Of a stretch of 64,000 bases of DNA, positions 23,677 to 60,165 are shown in pieces; position 1 is the first letter of the stretch, and each line of letters begins with the position of its first letter. The position numbers and the translations under genes are program-made. Below the pieces are notes generated by a model. It worked only from the letters and a program-made list of their open reading frames with translations, was not told where the DNA came from and did not search any database. The stretch spans positions 20,562 through 84,561 of the forward strand of contig JANPLU010000101.1 in assembly GCA_031422435.1 (NCBI GenBank), given 5' to 3'. This stretch comes from Acaryochloridaceae cyanobacterium VAR_48_metabat_390. GTDB taxonomy: Bacteria; Cyanobacteriota; Cyanobacteriia; Thermosynechococcales; Thermosynechococcaceae.

Positions 23677-24813
23677 ATGCTCAACACTACTATAAAAGCT
23701 GTCATAATATGGTCTACTTATGGCTCATATCATCTTGCTAGAGTACAAGCGTTAATCAATATTGGTTTTGAAGTTGATTGTATAAGTTATGCTTCGATGG
23801 ATCCTAAGTATCCTTTTTTTGCTTCAAGCTTAGCTAGTATAAAAGTAATTAATCAGTGTGACGCTAATGATATTAATTTTATATTCTCATTTATAAAAAC
23901 TTTCTTTATTCTTGTTAAGTCTAACCCCCATATAATTTTGACATGTGGATATGAACGACCCGAGTCTTTCTCATGTATTCTTTACTCAAAATTATTTTCG
24001 TGTAAATCACTTTTGCTTTTTGAAAATCAATTAGAGGATAAAAAGAGAAGTAAAATTATTGAACTCATTAAAAAATACTATATTCGTTTTTTTGATGGCA
24101 TCATTTGTGGTGGAAGTACGCATATTGAGTATCTTAAGCATCTTAAATATCCGCTTGATAGAGTTGTAACGGGTTATGACTCTGTAGACAATTCACGTAT
24201 TCAGTCTAGCAAAATACAAATTCATTCTCAAATCGAAAAGTCCTTATCACCTTTCCCCTTTTACTTTTTATGTATTGCACGGTTAATACACAAAAAAAAT
24301 CTAACTACGCTCATTCAGGCATACACTCTTTATAAAGAAAAAATTACTAAATATGAAGAGAAATGGAAATTAGTTATTGGTGGAGAAGGTTTTCTCCGAG
24401 AAGACCTTCTAAGTAAAATCTTTCAAAGCGATCTATCAAATGATGTATATCTTGCCGGACAAATTAATACTTTTGAGGATGTAGTTAACTATTACAGCTA
24501 TGCCAAGGCTTTTATACTGCCTAGCAACCATAGCGAACAATGGGGCTTAGTTGTTAATGAAGCAATGGCAGCAGGCTTACCCGTCATTGTCTCACAGCAG
24601 TGTGGATGCTCATCTGATCTCGTTCATGATGGAGTGAATGGCTTTACCTTTGATGGTAATTCAGCTGAGGATCTTAGTGAGCACATGCTATGGATGCATC
24701 TCAACCAAGAAAAACTATCCCAGATGGGGAAAGCATCTGAGGCAATAATATCAAAATTCTCAACATCAGTATTTGCTTCAAATGTAAAAACACTCTACAA
24801 GCGATTACAATGA
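23677..24813 (+). CDS. GT4 glycosyltransferase
   Basis: EQWGLVVNEAMAAGLPVIVS. Confidence 0.88.
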   Translation: MLNTTIKAVIIWSTYGSYHLARVQALINIGFEVDCISYASMDPKYPFFASSLASIKVINQCDANDINFIFSFIKTFFILVKSNPHIILTCGYERPESFSCILYSKLFSCKSLLLFENQLEDKKRSKIIELIKKYYIRFFDGIICGGSTHIEYLKHLKYPLDRVVTGYDSVDNSRIQSSKIQIHSQIEKSLSPFPFYFLCIARLIHKKNLTTLIQAYTLYKEKITKYEEKWKLVIGGEGFLREDLLSKIFQSDLSNDVYLAGQINTFEDVVNYYSYAKAFILPSNHSEQWGLVVNEAMAAGLPVIVSQQCGCSSDLVHDGVNGFTFDGNSAEDLSEHMLWMHLNQEKLSQMGKASEAIISKFSTSVFASNVKTLYKRLQ

Positions 24814-47317: not shown

Positions 47318-47809
47318 CTATACCTTGAGTACCCAAGCCTCGCGATTCTCTGCATTCACAAAAGAGGCTGGCACTACGGGAATCTTCACGCCCAAAGAAA
47401 CAAACGCAGCTCGAATGGCGGTTGCATGAGCGGATTCTGTGCTGCCAATGCTGGCTCCAGCGCTAATTAAAGCTGGGGTTTTAAGTTTAGCGACCTCTTG
47501 GGTGTAGGCGATCGCCGCATCGATTTCCAGCGCCAGCGCCAATTTTGCAATGTTGACATCACTGTCTACATTGCCTTCACCATTTTTGATGTAGGAAGAC
47601 ACATCGTAGCTAGATTCCGCCTTTACAGGGCTTCCGCCTAGGCTGCTGATTGCAGAGGTTAAGAGGTCGCGGTGCTGTTTGTGGTCGGCTTGGTTGGCGA
47701 GGGAGATCGCCAAGACGGCTTTACCCACATCCGTATTAGTCAGCTTGCCAGCGGCAAAGCTGTAGGCCCAAATGGCCTGATGCTCATAGAACAATGCATT
47801 GTTGAGAAT
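47318..47809 (-). pseudogene. Ferritin-like domain protein, 3' part (interrupted gene)
   Basis: ILNNALFYEHQAIWAY...H..H...LEIDAAIAY...ESAHA; joins in frame to 59989-60165. Confidence 0.9.
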
Positions 47810-47831
47810 CCCCAGTTAGATAACTTTACAG

Positions 47832-48792: not shown

Positions 48793-50091
48793 TTATCTCC
48801 CCACGGCCTGCAAATAGGTTGTAATTGCTCCATTTATCGAAGTGCAATCAGCGTCAGTTATGCCAACGTCACCTTTAAGAAGCATCCAAAACTTAATGCC
48901 GCCTGTATTAAATTCACCGTTGCCAGACAATAAACGAATTTTATTGTTAGCCCTAACTACTGAATCGGATTCACGGCTAAAAGTGCTGTTATAAAAGAAC
49001 CTGTCTTTAATCTGTGTGCCATTTGCCGCCTTAGAATAAAGCGACATCAAGGCATCTAAAGGGTTAGGAAGACCTATATAAATATAAAAATTATTTACGC
49101 TGTGACAGCCGCCGTCAAATAGGTCTGTATCATCTCTAGCCATAGCTTTAAAAGAACCTTTAAACGTCCACAAAGGCTTGACATCATTTTTGTAAACGCC
49201 AGCAAATTTTAGAAACATTCCTCTAAAATTTGTAGCTGTCCAATGAGTATCTAAAAATGCATCAGATGGATAGCCTATGCCGCCATCTTCGACACTGGCA
49301 CCGCTAGCAGCGCTAAACGCACGAGTGCCAGCCCAATTTTCAAGAATGCCAGTTTGAGGATTCATCAAATTGAGAGACTGACTAGCTTCTGTAGTTCCCA
49401 TAAAAGGGTAAAGTGCAAAAATTTTGCCAGAAGACGCAAACTCGCCTAGATTAGCGACCAACTGATTCAAAGCATTTGTTTGAGCCGTGGTGAGCGTGTA
49501 ACCTTGTGCAGTCTGAGCCGATCTGTAAGCCTCAACAATCTCGGTAGGGGTTGGCGGTGCTGGGGGCACACCTAAAAGAGCATCAACTTGTGCTTTGGTG
49601 TAGTAATTACTGAGATCTGCAACGCCAGCGGCACCCGTATCGCCCTTGTCGCCTTTATCTCCCTTAAGTCCTTGAATACCTTGGGCACCAGCAACACCAG
49701 GTTCACCCGTATCACCTTTGTCACCCTTATCACCTTTGTCACCTTTTGCACCAGGGGCACCTGGTAGCAAGGTTGCATCCAGCGCCTCTATCCTGATATC
49801 CCAAGAAGTTTGACTTGGTAGCAGTCTAAAGCCGAGTTTACGCACCTCTAAAGACTCTGGCTGCTCCAAAATGAAGCTTTGAGGGTCTGCCTGATAGCTG
49901 AAATCGTCTTGGGTATAGATAAACCCCGTGATGTCAGCTTGGGCGATCGCCGCACTACTCTCTTGCAACTGACCATCCTGATTAAGGGGCTGACTCAAAT
50001 GCACCACCCTAAAGTAGCTGCCCACCAAAACATCAGTGAACTGCCACTGGTCAGACAGGGTGAAGGTGGCGATAGGTGTGAATAAGGTCAT
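48793..50091 (-). CDS. Collagen-repeat spike/fibre-like protein
   Basis: Beta-rich N-terminal domain, G-X-Y repeats (GAKGDKGDKGDKGDTGEPG...), DLSNYYTKAQVD, distinct C-terminal domain. Confidence 0.7.
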   Translation of the reverse strand: MTLFTPIATFTLSDQWQFTDVLVGSYFRVVHLSQPLNQDGQLQESSAAIAQADITGFIYTQDDFSYQADPQSFILEQPESLEVRKLGFRLLPSQTSWDIRIEALDATLLPGAPGAKGDKGDKGDKGDTGEPGVAGAQGIQGLKGDKGDKGDTGAAGVADLSNYYTKAQVDALLGVPPAPPTPTEIVEAYRSAQTAQGYTLTTAQTNALNQLVANLGEFASSGKIFALYPFMGTTEASQSLNLMNPQTGILENWAGTRAFSAASGASVEDGGIGYPSDAFLDTHWTATNFRGMFLKFAGVYKNDVKPLWTFKGSFKAMARDDTDLFDGGCHSVNNFYIYIGLPNPLDALMSLYSKAANGTQIKDRFFYNSTFSRESDSVVRANNKIRLLSGNGEFNTGGIKFWMLLKGDVGITDADCTSINGAITTYLQAVGR

Positions 50092-50441: not shown

Positions 50442-50705
50442 CTAGACCATCCCTGCCAACGCAAATTCCATGTCTTCTAGGTAATCGTCGGGGCTGATAT
50501 TGTCCTCTAACATGCAGTCGAGCAGGTCATCAGGATGCATTTCGCCTCTAACGATGTCTGACAATAGCCGCTGACGACGGAAATACTGATTCCAAAGCAC
50601 CTCGGGATCATCATCTGGGGTCTGAATTTGCTCAGGCTCAAGACTGAGAGCAGACCAAGCTTTAGCGCCATCCATTATGAAAAAGTTCCAGGGACGCAAG
50701 AACAA
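50442..50705 (-). CDS. Small acidic hypothetical protein
   Basis: In operon; probable start MDGAK at about 50675. Confidence 0.5.
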   Translation of the reverse strand: MFLRPWNFFIMDGAKAWSALSLEPEQIQTPDDDPEVLWNQYFRRQRLLSDIVRGEMHPDDLLDCMLEDNISPDDYLEDMEFALAGMV

Positions 50706-51202
50706 AGATATTCAGGGTTTGCGGCCTTCACACGACCGCGAATTGTCCGATATGCGGCATCTTCATCAATCACAATGGGAGAGCCTCCAGCGCCAAAGGG
50801 GTAAGTGTAAGACTTACCACCGTAAGTCCTGTAGCTCTTGCCCGTGAGCTGTGATGTTTTGCGAGTGCCCGTGCCTCGACCTTTGACGATTACGACTCTC
50901 GGAGCAATCCAGCCGGGTAAAAGAATCTGATTAGATGCGGCGGGTGCTTGAAAGGCATAGGTTTGAAAATAATTTCCTAAGTCACCTGTGTTGCCACGTC
51001 CACGCTGAACCTGAAGCACTTTTTTAGCCGTGTTTAGGCCAGGCATAAAGGGACGAACCCAGATTTCTAACCCAGATGAAGCAATTTGCTGTTTAGGGTA
51101 AGAAACCTCATTAGATCCGTCCAAGTACGCCAAAAGCTTCGTTTTGGCGCTGTTGCTGTTGCCTCGTAAGACTCCGAGGTATCTAGCCCCTCGTCTTTTC
51201 AT
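50675..51202 (-). CDS. Basic hypothetical protein, paralogue B (candidate capsid protein)
   Basis: Arg-rich N-terminus; colinear with 51205-51753. Confidence 0.65.
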   Translation of the reverse strand: MKRRGARYLGVLRGNSNSAKTKLLAYLDGSNEVSYPKQQIASSGLEIWVRPFMPGLNTAKKVLQVQRGRGNTGDLGNYFQTYAFQAPAASNQILLPGWIAPRVVIVKGRGTGTRKTSQLTGKSYRTYGGKSYTYPFGAGGSPIVIDEDAAYRTIRGRVKAANPEYLCSCVPGTFS

Positions 51203-51204
51203 GG

Positions 51205-51753
51205 CTAGACGCTATAGCTACCAGGCACAAAGCTGCACTGATTTAAGGCGCCTGTCGTACCACTTTTAACATTGGCTCGGATCTTTAAGAACACCGCGTC
51301 TTCACTCTTTTCGTCAGCAGCCGTACCTTCTCCAAAGGGTACAGATATTGTTTTGCCGCCATATTTGCGGTATTTCAATCCGCTAATTTTGGAGGTTTCA
51401 GATGTGCCAGCTCCTGCAGTTCTGCCTGTGGTAATCGCGGCGCGAGGAGATAAAACACCAGACAAAACGAGCTTAGAATCTTCAGCAGGCGCTGTCTCGC
51501 TGACATAAGGCGCTGCAAGAGCCACAATAGTATCGTTACCGGATTGAACAAACTGCAAAAGCTTGACACCAGCACCAAGGGGAAGCACAAAGGGACGCAC
51601 CCATACTGAAGCACGGGCGGGTCGGTTGCCTGCACGTTCAGGATATTCGAGATCCACATCTCCATTGAGATAGGCGAGAAGCTTAGTCTTCGCGCTAGGA
51701 CCTCTTTTGCCTCGCAAAATGTTTAGATACCGAGTGCCAGATCGACGTGCCAT
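51205..51753 (-). CDS. Basic hypothetical protein, paralogue A (candidate capsid protein)
   Basis: Shared RYL..LRG...AKTKLLAYL.G, WVRPF, YGGK...PFG, CS.VPG. Confidence 0.65.
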   Translation of the reverse strand: MARRSGTRYLNILRGKRGPSAKTKLLAYLNGDVDLEYPERAGNRPARASVWVRPFVLPLGAGVKLLQFVQSGNDTIVALAAPYVSETAPAEDSKLVLSGVLSPRAAITTGRTAGAGTSETSKISGLKYRKYGGKTISVPFGEGTAADEKSEDAVFLKIRANVKSGTTGALNQCSFVPGSYSV

Positions 51754-55840: not shown

Positions 55841-56412
55841 ATGAAACTAAATAGGCACGGAAAGGCTACTGTGTTCTCTGAGTCTGACTATTTGAAGTTT
55901 CGAGACAAGGTTACGTCTAAGACCCATCGCCTTATTTTTGACTTCGGCTGGTGGACGGGCGAACGAATGGGCGCGATTCTGCTGCTAACGGTGGATAACG
56001 TCTACAGCAACCCTGCCAAGAGTGAGCCGCGCGATTATGTGACCTATCCAGCTTCTACTCGCAAAGACCGAAGGACGCGCCAAGTGAGAATCCATCCCGA
56101 GCTGGCGACAAATCTATGGGCGTATCGCCCACCGACAGAAGGCTTTCTGTTTCAGCGTTTGAGAAACCCGGGGCAGGCGATTTCGATGAGTGATATTGAC
56201 GCGCTGATGCGCTATTACCTACAAAAGCTGGGTTGGCAGGAGCGGGGCTACGCTACACACTCGTTCCGTCGCTCGTTTATCACGCGGCTCCATGAGAATG
56301 GGACAGACCCGATTGTGATGCAGCAGCTTACGGGACACTCGAACCTACAGAATCTGATCGCTATGTGGAGGTTGACCCGAATCGGGTTGACCGTGCGCTG
56401 CTGTCTCTTTAG
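55841..56412 (+). pseudogene. Tyrosine recombinase (catalytic domain only), frameshifted before the catalytic Tyr
   Basis: TGER, K, HSFRR, TGH present; RYVEVDPNRVDRALLSL* lies in the -1 frame from 56359. Confidence 0.8.
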
Positions 56413-56950
56413 GGGCTTTGCCTAGATAGCGCGATCGCTTCTTCCCGTTCTCATCACGCCACCGTTGCACTAGATAAGGGCCGTAGGTTTTTCCTTTAAT
56501 TGTTTTGTAGTTTTTCTCTACCCAATACTCTCCAAAGACTGAATCTGTAACGCTTTGAAGTGCTTTATCGCTAATCTTGTCCTGGTCTTGCCCACCAAAT
56601 AAGTCATCGTCTGTTTTTTGGTGGGCAGATTGAGGGCGATCGCCTCCCTCGATGCCACTTTTAGAAAAATCAGGTAACGAGTCATCAAGGGTTTCAGGCG
56701 AATTGTTTATGGCCACAACATCATTTGAGGCAGAATTGCTCTCATCCATGAGCGGGGCGGGGTGATAAAACAGCGGGTTATAGTGCAGCCCATCTCTGCA
56801 ATAAAACCAGCCAGCACCACAGAAGCATTTAATCTCTGCGTAACCTATTGGGATAAGACCGCCGCCGTCGTCGTCCTGGTCTTGCCCATCAAAAGCTTCG
56901 TGATAGAGAACTTTTCCGAGTAGGGTGAGCTGGTCATAGGTTAGGGTCAT
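56345..56950 (-). CDS. Hypothetical protein with basic C-terminal nucleic-acid-binding-like motif
   Basis: KTIKGKTYGPYLVQRWRDENGKKRSRYLGK. Confidence 0.55.
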   Translation of the reverse strand: MTLTYDQLTLLGKVLYHEAFDGQDQDDDGGGLIPIGYAEIKCFCGAGWFYCRDGLHYNPLFYHPAPLMDESNSASNDVVAINNSPETLDDSLPDFSKSGIEGGDRPQSAHQKTDDDLFGGQDQDKISDKALQSVTDSVFGEYWVEKNYKTIKGKTYGPYLVQRWRDENGKKRSRYLGKAPKETAAHGQPDSGQPPHSDQIL

Positions 56951-57251
56951 CGGCGGCGATCGCTTCTATTGCGACGGGGTTTATGCTGAAGTTTTCTCTG
57001 ACTAGGCGGCGGCACCTGAAAACCGAGCGGGGTCTTACGGAACTCTTTGATAACGTCCATGAATGCCAGTGCAACAATAGACCAGATGTACAGCAGCATG
57101 GCAAGACAAAACCCAGCCACTACAAGATTTAGGGATAGATAGATGAGGTTTTGGAGAAGTTAAATCATCGTTCTGAGGTAACGCGTCTTTCTCAGGGTGA
57201 ACACACAACAGACCAAAACTAACCCCATGCAATCAAGGAGATCGCATGGGG

Positions 57252-57620
57252 TTAGTTTTCTGAATCAGTAATCTCATTGAGCCGCTCAATGGTTGCTTCA
57301 AGAAGTTGAATGCGTTGCTTTTGCTGCTCAACTTCATTCTGCAACCTAGCCAACCGCAAACGCTCCTCTTCTAGCAGTTGGCTAATGACTCCCCCATTAT
57401 TTGGGCTTGCTGTGGAGTGGCATTCCCGATCATGCCCCTCGCGTATCTCTCTATCAATTCTGATCTGCTCAGTCCCTCTTGAACTGCTCTTTCGTCCAGA
57501 CTCTGAATGCTCAGCTCGGTTAGGGAGATGTTTAATCGTTTCTTTGGTTCTTCGTATGAACCGTGCTTTACTCCGGTCTTTCTTTGAGCCATTTCTTTTT
57601 TCCATAGTTGGTTCATACAC
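57252..57620 (-). CDS. Coiled-coil protein overlapping the RHH gene in another frame
   Basis: ISQLLEEERLRLARLQNEVEQQKQRIQLLEATIERL heptads; true start uncertain. Confidence 0.4.
   Translation of the reverse strand: MYEPTMEKRNGSKKDRSKARFIRRTKETIKHLPNRAEHSESGRKSSSRGTEQIRIDREIREGHDRECHSTASPNNGGVISQLLEEERLRLARLQNEVEQQKQRIQLLEATIERLNEITDSEN
57371..57592 (-). CDS. Ribbon-helix-helix (CopG-like) repressor
   Basis: KKRLNISLTELSIQSLDERAVQEGLSRSELIERYAR. Confidence 0.8.
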   Translation of the reverse strand: MAQRKTGVKHGSYEEPKKRLNISLTELSIQSLDERAVQEGLSRSELIERYARGMIGNATPQQAQIMGESLANC

Positions 57621-57711
57621 AAGATATTAACTGAACTCTTACACAACTACCATTACATTATTGCGCATTCTTACACAAGATGTTACCTTTGGGTGGCATC
57701 TTGTGTAAGAA
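57616..57711. promoter_or_regulatory. Divergent promoter region with repeated TACACAA operator-like sites
   Basis: TACACAA at 57616, 57640, 57672 and inverted at 57701; 15-bp inverted repeat 57668-57711; TTGCGC-N17-TACCTT with extended TG at 57661-57689. Confidence 0.6.
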
Positions 57712-58359: not shown

Positions 58360-58417
58360 ACCCGCCTGATGAGTCTTAAATAGACGAAACTTTCCCAACG
58401 TTGGGAAAGTCGCGGGT
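58360..58417 (+). ncRNA. Type I hammerhead ribozyme
   Basis: acccgc-CUGAUGA-gucu(uaaau)agac-GAAA-cuuuccca(acgu)ugggaaag-UC-gcgggu; full core and three stems; predicted cleavage after C58411. Confidence 0.9.
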
Positions 58418-58615
58418 ACCCTTCCAAAAGGTACCAGCCCTAAATGCGATCGCTAATCGGGCTTAGTTGAGAATTGGCCTTGAATTATCGGGCTTTCAAA
58501 ATTCACGGCCTTGAATGCGATCGCGTTTAGTAGAGCTTTGTCGGTTCTCACAGTGAATAGGCCACGCATTAGGCGGGCTTCGGGAGATTCTATGAACCGT
58601 ATGGCAAGGCTTAAC
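58412..58615 (+). ncRNA. Bridge RNA (5' hairpin, target-binding loop, donor-binding loop)
   Basis: Guides gttgagaatt and tcaaaattc match the empty target; acagtgaat and gggagattc match the element ends; each pair is enclosed by a stem. Confidence 0.85.
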
Positions 58616-58670
58616 CGCCGAGCAAGCTTAAGTTTGGAACCCAACTCCTAGGACAAAAGCGAAAGCAAAT

Positions 58671-59892: not shown

Positions 59893-59933
59893 CACCAAAA
59901 AGCCACCGTCTCTCAATCGGTGGCTTTTTGGTG
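59893..59933 (+). terminator. Strong bidirectional terminator-like hairpin at the element right end
   Basis: caccaaaaagccaccg...cggtggctttttggtg, 16-bp perfect inverted repeat. Confidence 0.75.
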
Positions 59934-59988
59934 AGTTTGGAAGATAGGAAAGGCTATGCAGGCCTGGTAACGATCTACTACAGTGAAT

Positions 59989-60165
59989 TTTGACATCGTT
60001 CTGTTTAGAAGGGGTCGCAGCATCCGCCCGACCTGCCAGCAGCGGTAAGCCCAGCGCACTCACAATGCCGCCTGCGACCCCAGCCATACTCCCCGTCACC
60101 AAAACATCGCGGCGGGAAACACCCTTGCGTCGAGGACGGTCTAGGTCGTAGTTATATTCGTTCAT
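59989..60165 (-). pseudogene. Ferritin-like domain protein, 5' part with Tat-like signal (interrupted gene)
   Basis: MNEY...SRRDVL...AGRADAA-TPSKQNDVK; continues as ILNNALFYE at 47809. Confidence 0.88.

Follow-up and report, generated by a model that had tools for sequence, protein, structure and literature searches.

The 64,000-nt window analysed here, a contig stretch from the cyanobacterium Acaryochloridaceae VAR_48_metabat_390, contains an IS110-family recombinase gene preceded by a structured non-coding region, and the question raised by the locus is how much DNA this pair moves. Canonical compact IS110 elements are about 1.5 kb long, carry the RNA in the left end and encode transposition functions only, whereas the element here measures 12,179 bp between its two cores and its relatives 8.0–19.0 kb. 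A first-pass annotation had proposed that the recombinase and a bridge RNA, the guides of which read the host target and both element ends, move the whole 12-kb unit. This proposal was backed by empty sites, by a reciprocal full/empty pair with a second genome (G018), by covariation of guides and insertion sites, and by the absence of short IS forms among 64 loci. Judged from sequence, RNA-guided movement of the whole element is very probable, and a good case can be made for the full explanation, in which recombinase and RNA would together serve a virus-like element of 12.2 kb as its integrase.

Table 1. Features of the element and its flanks, in window coordinates.
Feature	Position	Strand	Details
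Host ferritin-like gene, 3′ part, outside the element	47318..47805	-	Pfam Ferritin_2, E 2.6e-17
Left junction	47801..47815	+	host left target GTTGA 47801-47805; core GAA 47806-47808; right-donor TCCCC 47809-47813; then AG
YkuD-like (L,D-transpeptidase fold) protein, 181 aa	47993..48538	-	PF03734, E 2.6e-4, below cut-off
Collagen-repeat protein, 432 aa, tail-fibre-like	48793..50091	-	PF01391; PHROG tail/tail-fibre families, chiefly across the collagen stretch
Conserved module, proteins of 117, 87, 175, 182, 271, 883 (Pro-rich) and 101 aa	50088..55642	-	same order in many cyanobacterial loci
Small tyrosine recombinase	55841..56425	+	PF00589; frameshifted right before the catalytic Tyr
Ribbon-helix-helix repressor-like protein	57371..57646	-	PF01402, E 1e-5; PHROG Arc-like repressor
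Type I hammerhead ribozyme (predicted)	58360..58417	+	Rfam RF00163 and RF03152, both sub-cut-off; fold and descriptor
Target-binding loop	58440..58530	+	fold, shuffles, helix covariation, guide-flank covariation
Left target guide GTTGAGAA	58466-58473	+	within target-binding loop
Right target guide CAAAATTC	58497-58504	+	within target-binding loop
Donor-binding loop	58534..58611	+	fold, guide matches, helix covariation
Left donor guide ACAGTGAA	58550-58557	+	within donor-binding loop
Right donor guide GGAGATTC	58583-58590	+	7/8; mismatch at 58585, present in relatives too
IS110-family recombinase, 400 aa	58671..59873	+	D7-E60-D103-D106 and S319; NCBIfam NF051857.1
Terminator-like hairpin after the recombinase gene	59894..59935	+	site 59906-59923 with T tail
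Right junction	59978..59992	+	CT; left-donor ACAGT 59980-59984; core GAA 59985-59987; host right target TTTTG 59988-59992
Host ferritin-like gene, 5′ part	59988..60165	-	continuous with the 3′ part once the element is removed

The element interrupts a host gene (Table 1), and its removal joins 47318–47805 to 59985–60165 in a single stop-free 222-aa frame with a ferritin-like domain, the 5′ part of which bears what we take to be a twin-arginine-like signal. By sequence comparison the insertion was scarless, with a site layout of 5+3+5 nt. The shared core had been read as GAAT in the first-pass annotation; its first three bases hold at both ends, and the fourth, T, is shared in this copy only. 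The four-base core was rejected because the right end of a sister element in G018 reads GAA and continues with A.

The empty site was found in real DNA. Among nine same-genus genomes, six matched the left flank with an alignment running through the site without an insert, the sequence in G018 being identical to the reconstructed empty site, and contigs of runs X3, X5 and X6 connected 47805 directly to 59985. G018 in turn carries the sister element (recombinase 94% identical) with its two ends on two separate contigs, and the joined flanks of this element correspond to uninterrupted sequence on contig C33 of the window genome. The element side of the left junction was identical in G018, at a different site (L182). 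This reciprocal full/empty pair fixes both ends and shows the GAA core; the G018 target loop was unassembled, so its guides were excluded from guide reading. Altogether 14 empty sites were reconstructed, and restoration of a reading frame was clear in three (window, L250 and L177), the others being short or intergenic.

Two further perfect copies of the 13-nt target were present, both unoccupied, at 24752–24764 of the window (minus strand), close to the end of a 378-aa host gene, and near position 580 of contig C78 of the same genome; 0.12 such targets were expected from base composition.

The recombinase gene was single-copy in the assembly. Its product scored 398.5 bits (cut-off 180) against the IS110-family model NF051857.1 and only 19.7 bits, below cut-off, against PF01548, and it gave no match to PF02371, which was present in 7 of 54 relatives. 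The residues D7, E60, D103, D106 and S319 were all retained in 161 of 163 proteins, S319 being invariant in one set of relatives (54/54) and present in 162/163 of another. Profile comparison against the PDB returned weak matches to ISCro4 (E 0.0019) and IS621 (E 0.023), and relatives at E≤1e-60 were found in 44 of 401 Cyanobacteriia genomes.

All four guide positions proposed in the first-pass annotation were correct when re-checked against the sequence. Region 58466–58475 is identical to left flank plus core, 58496–58504 reads as core plus right flank in reverse complement, 58550–58558 is identical to 59980–59988, and 58581–58590 agrees with the reverse complement of 47806–47815 at 8/10 positions. 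The working guide length was 8 nt, i.e. five variable nucleotides plus the core. The folding check suggested at that stage was run on 58412–58620 and gave a pair of long stem-loops, in the internal loops of which the guides lie (MFE −77.4 kcal/mol, z −3.22). Both proposed stems are present in the MFE fold, the target stem (58440–58453/58517–58530) with complete pairing including one G-U, and the donor stem (58534–58547/58594–58611) paired apart from a 4-nt bulge. The target stem includes the self-complementary repeat GCGATCGC, which is common elsewhere in this genome. In 20,000 dinucleotide shuffles of 58412–58620 the three perfect 8-nt guides never occurred together, and two guides occurred once.

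In an alignment of 38 sequences the helices closing both loops were 90–96% paired with two-sided changes, a score computed on a structure drawn from the same alignment, so that the controls lean in its favour. The donor loop was absent from the RNAalifold prediction, and in single-sequence folds the pairing of guides was just slightly under average (0.39–0.49 vs 0.38). A candidate pseudoknot between the 5′ loop (58422–58428) and 58634–58640 was rejected, as at least six pairs formed in 10/45 sequences vs 53/180 controls, i.e. at background level. Handshake dinucleotides were compatible with the target loop of the window and displayed no clear pattern over 14 loci. A search for promoters gave no convincing candidate (4 sites vs 4.7 expected).

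The covariation check on homologous recombinase loci, also suggested in the first-pass annotation, was carried out on cyanobacterial loci, and the target guides tracked the flanks of each locus. For the right flank, 152 unique loci were reduced to 107 with the donor-loop motif and, with seven donor-type junctions set aside, to 74 unique right junctions. Core plus flank was found in reverse complement (at least 8 nt) in the locus's own target loop in 45 of these 74, when 0.3 were expected and 23 of 5402 cross pairs matched; the guide match was shorter than 8 nt in the other 29. A motif-free version gave 26/54 (from 106 loci) vs 10/2862 cross pairs; its junction caller mis-called the right end of the window itself and many others, and was replaced by the motif-anchored caller. 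The 55 matched loci had 50 distinct right targets, kin among these loci not being independent.

For the left end, longer stretches were used (153 loci, 113 with a donor loop). Where at least 12 kb was available upstream, the host flank matched the locus's own left guide over at least 8 nt in 14 of 15 loci (0.07 expected; 1/210 cross pairs), and two shorter loci matched as well. Both ends were called in 14 of the 16 left-end loci, delimiting elements of 8,037–19,017 bp; both target guides matched in 11 of these, and the left guide alone in three. Forty loci with a missing motif or short flanks stood outside the covariation counts. The donor was conserved across loci, with CT...AG flanks in most. 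The left donor guide equalled the right end in 81/94 loci, one mismatch being allowed in junction calling, and the right donor guide placed T or A opposite a C in 112/113, i.e. the mismatch is retained.

Matches of this kind could be ascribed to chance or to an assembly artefact, given the shortness of the guides, the imperfect match of the fourth and an assembly broken into 136 contigs. The shuffles, the cross-locus controls and the empty sites in independent data contradict this explanation, which is hardly credible.

Some loci departed from the common pattern. In L125 and L052 the right flank disagreed with the locus's own right guide, and the L125 flank resembled the L052 guide, which suggests that near-identical elements were assembled into chimeras. 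In L258 and L259, about 280 nt ahead of the recombinase, the RNA after the hammerhead apparently has three guide loops instead of two, and in these loci the recombinase is on the lysis side of the module. In a distant subclade (L281/L189, L197, L270, L272 and L277) the hammerhead and the catalytic residues are kept and repeated guide-like units replace the standard two loops; these could be multi-guide RNAs, and a crude search did not find the ends of these elements.

The element also encodes a small tyrosine recombinase, which might integrate it, the IS110 gene then being a passenger IS near the right end. The position of the tyrosine recombinase gene is fixed in many elements, its catalytic Tyr is kept in 60 of 74 sequences by a pattern-based count, and relatives of the window copy are intact. 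The ends of the element, however, have just 3 bp in common, and all four guides fit the ends of the whole element. Among 64 loci with at least 3.3 kb of upstream sequence, none had a left end within 3 kb of the IS110 recombinase gene, and no short or stand-alone IS form was seen. Moreover, L249, L257 and L177 have the same ends without a tyrosine recombinase. In the window the gene is broken, the Tyr-bearing end being in a different frame, while related contigs in runs X3, X5 and X6 have one extra base near 56358 and an intact gene. The gene occupies the same position on a plasmid without an IS110 match, so a dimer-resolving or regulatory role would fit this protein. Being frameshifted here, intact in relatives, absent from the L249 group and plasmid-borne, the tyrosine recombinase is a very improbable integrase.

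Assembly of run X1, a possible source of this DNA, placed the element on one contig from 47806 to 59988 with a depth of 14.6, the flanks having depths of 7.3 and 10.3. The contig breaks at exactly these bases on both sides, the pattern expected of a circle or tandem junction. Among the contig joints shown for run X1 the circle joint was absent, and the donor junction was not found in the assembly of the window. Seven other loci contained the donor junction, where circles and tandem copies are both possible, and in L062 and L124 the junction was followed by the left-end genes of the element. Head-to-tail copies met at the donor junction in L062 (11150–11600), and short repeats lay immediately within the left end.

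Upstream of the bridge RNA, the predicted hammerhead would cut after GUC (58409–58411), and the 3′ product would begin at 58412, the very start coordinate of the RNA in the first-pass annotation. The Rfam scores were below cut-off for both RF00163 (32.5 bits, E 7.1e-5, cut-off 34) and RF03152 (38.6 bits, cut-off 56.3), and an Rfam scan of 20 whole homologous loci returned no hammerhead. A descriptor of the core plus three stems matched upstream of the recombinase in 48/100 loci, in 0/100 on the other strand and in 2/1759 other windows; an earlier descriptor, overly strict on stem I, had matched 38/101. The CUGANGA, GAAA and NUH core was present, the cleavage triplet among 45 unique homologues being GUC in 36, GUA in five, AUC in two and AUA in two. 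Pairs outside the descriptor were kept with several pair types, i.e. stem II pairs 3–5 in 42, 43 and 40 of the 45 homologues and stem III pairs 4–5 in 45 and 43. By eye, several of the 52 loci failing the strict descriptor resemble variant hammerheads. A plain long conserved hairpin replaces the hammerhead in L249, L257, L177, L132, L134, L125, L052, L025 and L267–L271, without Rfam match in those tested.

Release of the bridge RNA by ribozyme processing is likely on these sequence grounds. A promoter at the circle junction, as in IS621, would be unusable here, 10.6 kb separating the RNA from the left end; with the adjoining genes also oppositely oriented, an internal transcript cut by the ribozyme would be the simplest source of the RNA. 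Such a transcript would run rightward from the internal early region of the element across the hammerhead, and the cut after 58411 would fix the 5′ end of the bridge RNA. The recombinase would then bind both loops, the donor loop with the circle junction ACAGT-GAA-TCCCC and the target loop with the host site GTTGA-GAA-TTTTG, and strands would be exchanged at the core as in IS621. In the reverse reaction a circle of 12,179 bp would be excised and the ferritin-like gene restored. The circle would spread from cell to cell, probably inside a particle built from the uncharacterised module, and a change of the ten target-guide bases would give new insertion sites. Processing may be non-essential, because extended IS621 RNAs show a loss of only about twofold (PMC13626964, in its accessible text).

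From left to right the element holds the YkuD-like gene, the collagen-repeat gene, seven genes for uncharacterised proteins, the small tyrosine recombinase gene, small genes with the ribbon-helix-helix repressor, and then ribozyme, RNA and recombinase. The YkuD-like protein occupies the position of the lysin in relatives, and L209 has a protein with YkuD and endolysin domains there. The proteins of the conserved module had no informative Pfam or PHROG match. Within the module, tandem paralogues of 175 and 182 aa (window 50675–51753) are 40% identical, most relatives having one copy. Two 20-bp inverted repeats, at 57215–57259 and 57668–57711, lie on either side of the repressor region and are candidate operators, terminators or origin.

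The 271-aa family was found in 61 of 401 Cyanobacteriia genomes (15%) and had 695 representatives at 50% clustering. Around its members (60 regions fetched of 74 matches), most regions were without this IS110 within the stretch, and in some there were genes for a full-length tyrosine integrase, a primase/helicase or a peptidase. L285 (CP019638.1) and L286 (CP019637.1), both circular and filed as plasmids, have the same module with Par genes and no IS110 match; these are possible plasmid-prophages. Models of the 271- and 182-aa proteins were confident (pLDDT 88.7 and 83.5). Fold searches with these two models gave no clear match, the best Z-scores being 5.3 (rmsd 7.4, 64 aligned) and 4.8 (rmsd 4.1, 65 aligned), and neither protein had a BFVD match at E≤0.001; both may still adopt a known fold. 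Sequence searches of the Atlas and PDB gave nothing clear.

No recognised capsid, packaging or replication gene was present in the element. Neither a Zot/pI ATPase nor a rolling-circle initiator was matched by Pfam or PHROG in 16 of its proteins or in three small ones; the same libraries detected both the Zot/pI ATPase and a Rep_trans initiator in L249. Relatives of the element were found neither in IMG/VR, by a pattern-based search of limited sensitivity, nor in GenBank phages. The 16 delimited elements had several different cargo sets. One set is shared by L249, L257 and L177, inovirus-like integrated elements of 9–10 kb delimited by the same recombinase–RNA module. L266, an element of ~17 kb with a matching left end, has genes for a reverse transcriptase, for a protein with an FGE-sulfatase domain and for an AAA ATPase, together reminiscent of diversity-generating retroelements.

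By gene content, a virus-like cargo is supported, not proven. The guides could also act as described on non-viral DNA, whether a plasmid-like integrating unit, a unit that forms no particles, or DNA accreted stepwise by an expanding IS110. Expanded IS110 loci of up to about 100 kb are reported in the accessible text of Hu et al. 2026 (10.64898/2026.08.14.744561), neither a capsid fold nor a packaging ATPase was recognised in this element, the module also occurs on the two plasmids with Par genes, and the delimited elements hold several unrelated cargo sets, that of L266 among them. Here, however, both donor half-sites are at the termini and the gene order is kept across families, whereas the boundaries in the accessible text of Hu et al. 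are one-sided and internal. In addition, the module is found without IS110 next to other integrases, and three delimited elements cluster, of which the tested member, L249, has the inovirus-type Zot/pI ATPase and a rolling-circle initiator. A non-viral cargo is unlikely, and the odds lean slightly towards the cargo being a virus. The most specific form of the virus reading takes the element as the provirus of a so far undescribed family of small viruses of cyanobacteria. Its virion proteins would have novel folds, a domesticated bridge recombinase would be its reprogrammable integrase, the guide would be freed by the ribozyme from an early viral transcript, and unrelated viruses, inoviruses among them, would share the cassette; this form is tentative, with a little less than an even chance.

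Phage attachment sites are normally set by protein-DNA recognition. Here RNA apparently specifies them, almost every lineage having a site of its own, and ten changed RNA letters would redirect the landing site of the element; if the novel-virus reading is true, each lineage picks a new host attachment site by such a ten-base change. By its sequence the pair is a bridge system of the IS110 group and no compact IS. The recombinase clade appears here solely as the integrase of 8–19 kb elements, and a predicted ribozyme frequently marks the 5′ end of the RNA. The clade provides a natural collection of at least 50 guide-target pairs, possibly skipped by standard filters, and its GAA core, very short left end and evolution towards 8–19 kb cargo could make it useful for photosynthetic hosts and for the design of bridge editing. 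The ribozyme suggests a testable way in which a bridge RNA could be made without a usable junction promoter. The locus also suggests RNA guidance for the IS110 genes long known from inoviruses, and it indicates that an unannotated virus-like module is widespread among cyanobacteria.

Earlier publications already describe bridge RNAs, large IS110 elements and inoviruses integrated by IS110. In mostly open literature, no publication was found that treats this clade as a dedicated integrase, reports a bridge RNA released by a ribozyme, or links this clade, cyanobacterial provirus-like cargo or a hammerhead to bridge RNA; supplements of two 2026 preprints could list such loci. In the accessible text of one preprint (10.64898/2026.10.21.760802), bridge RNAs and hammerheads are handled separately, and 1-kb flanks are used for boundaries.

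As far as the accessible parts of the sources go (PMC11208160, PMC13626964), the system resembles IS621 and ISCro4 in having a DEDD plus serine recombinase, an RNA upstream of the gene with the target loop first and the donor loop second, and scarless insertion at a short core with a 2–3-bp inverted repeat (CT...AG) around the donor. The left guides are in sense and the right guides in antisense orientation, as in IS621 and ISCro4 and as the first-pass annotation had recognised. It differs in that the core is GAA instead of CT, the site is a symmetric 5+3+5, the RNA is 10.6 kb from the left end with a hammerhead upstream, the protein gives no match to PF02371, a domain which the 2024 bridge-RNA pipeline required (PMC11208160), and a compact IS form was never found. 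The IS621 RNA arises from a promoter created at the circle junction or by read-through (PMC13626964).

The elements of Hu et al. 2026, according to the accessible text, are likewise moved over many kb by an IS110 recombinase and RNA, whole-unit mobility being mostly <20 kb; their cargo is mostly plasmid-derived and accreting with one-sided donor matches, unlike the virus-like module with both canonical donor halves found here. The accessible main text of that paper makes no mention of prophage, cyanobact-, ribozyme, virus or capsid. In the Neisseria Nf, Acinetobacter Af1 and Thermus phiOH16, Zuza8 and Zuza27 inoviruses, as here, an IS110/Piv-type gene is at one end of the provirus and is thought to drive integration and excision; in the accessible parts of these reports (PMC11209303, PMC11437467) no guide RNA is named and no guides are mapped. 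The window element itself is not shown to be an inovirus, as it has no recognised Zot/pI or Rep gene, while relatives of the L249 type look inovirus-like. The accessible part of Perreault et al. 2011 (PMC3088659), in which the terms transposase, recombinase and cyanobact- are absent, describes a hammerhead in a prophage-like region adjoining an integration gene, with a proposed role in the processing of long transcripts; the hammerhead here differs in that it abuts a guide RNA and would set its 5′ end.
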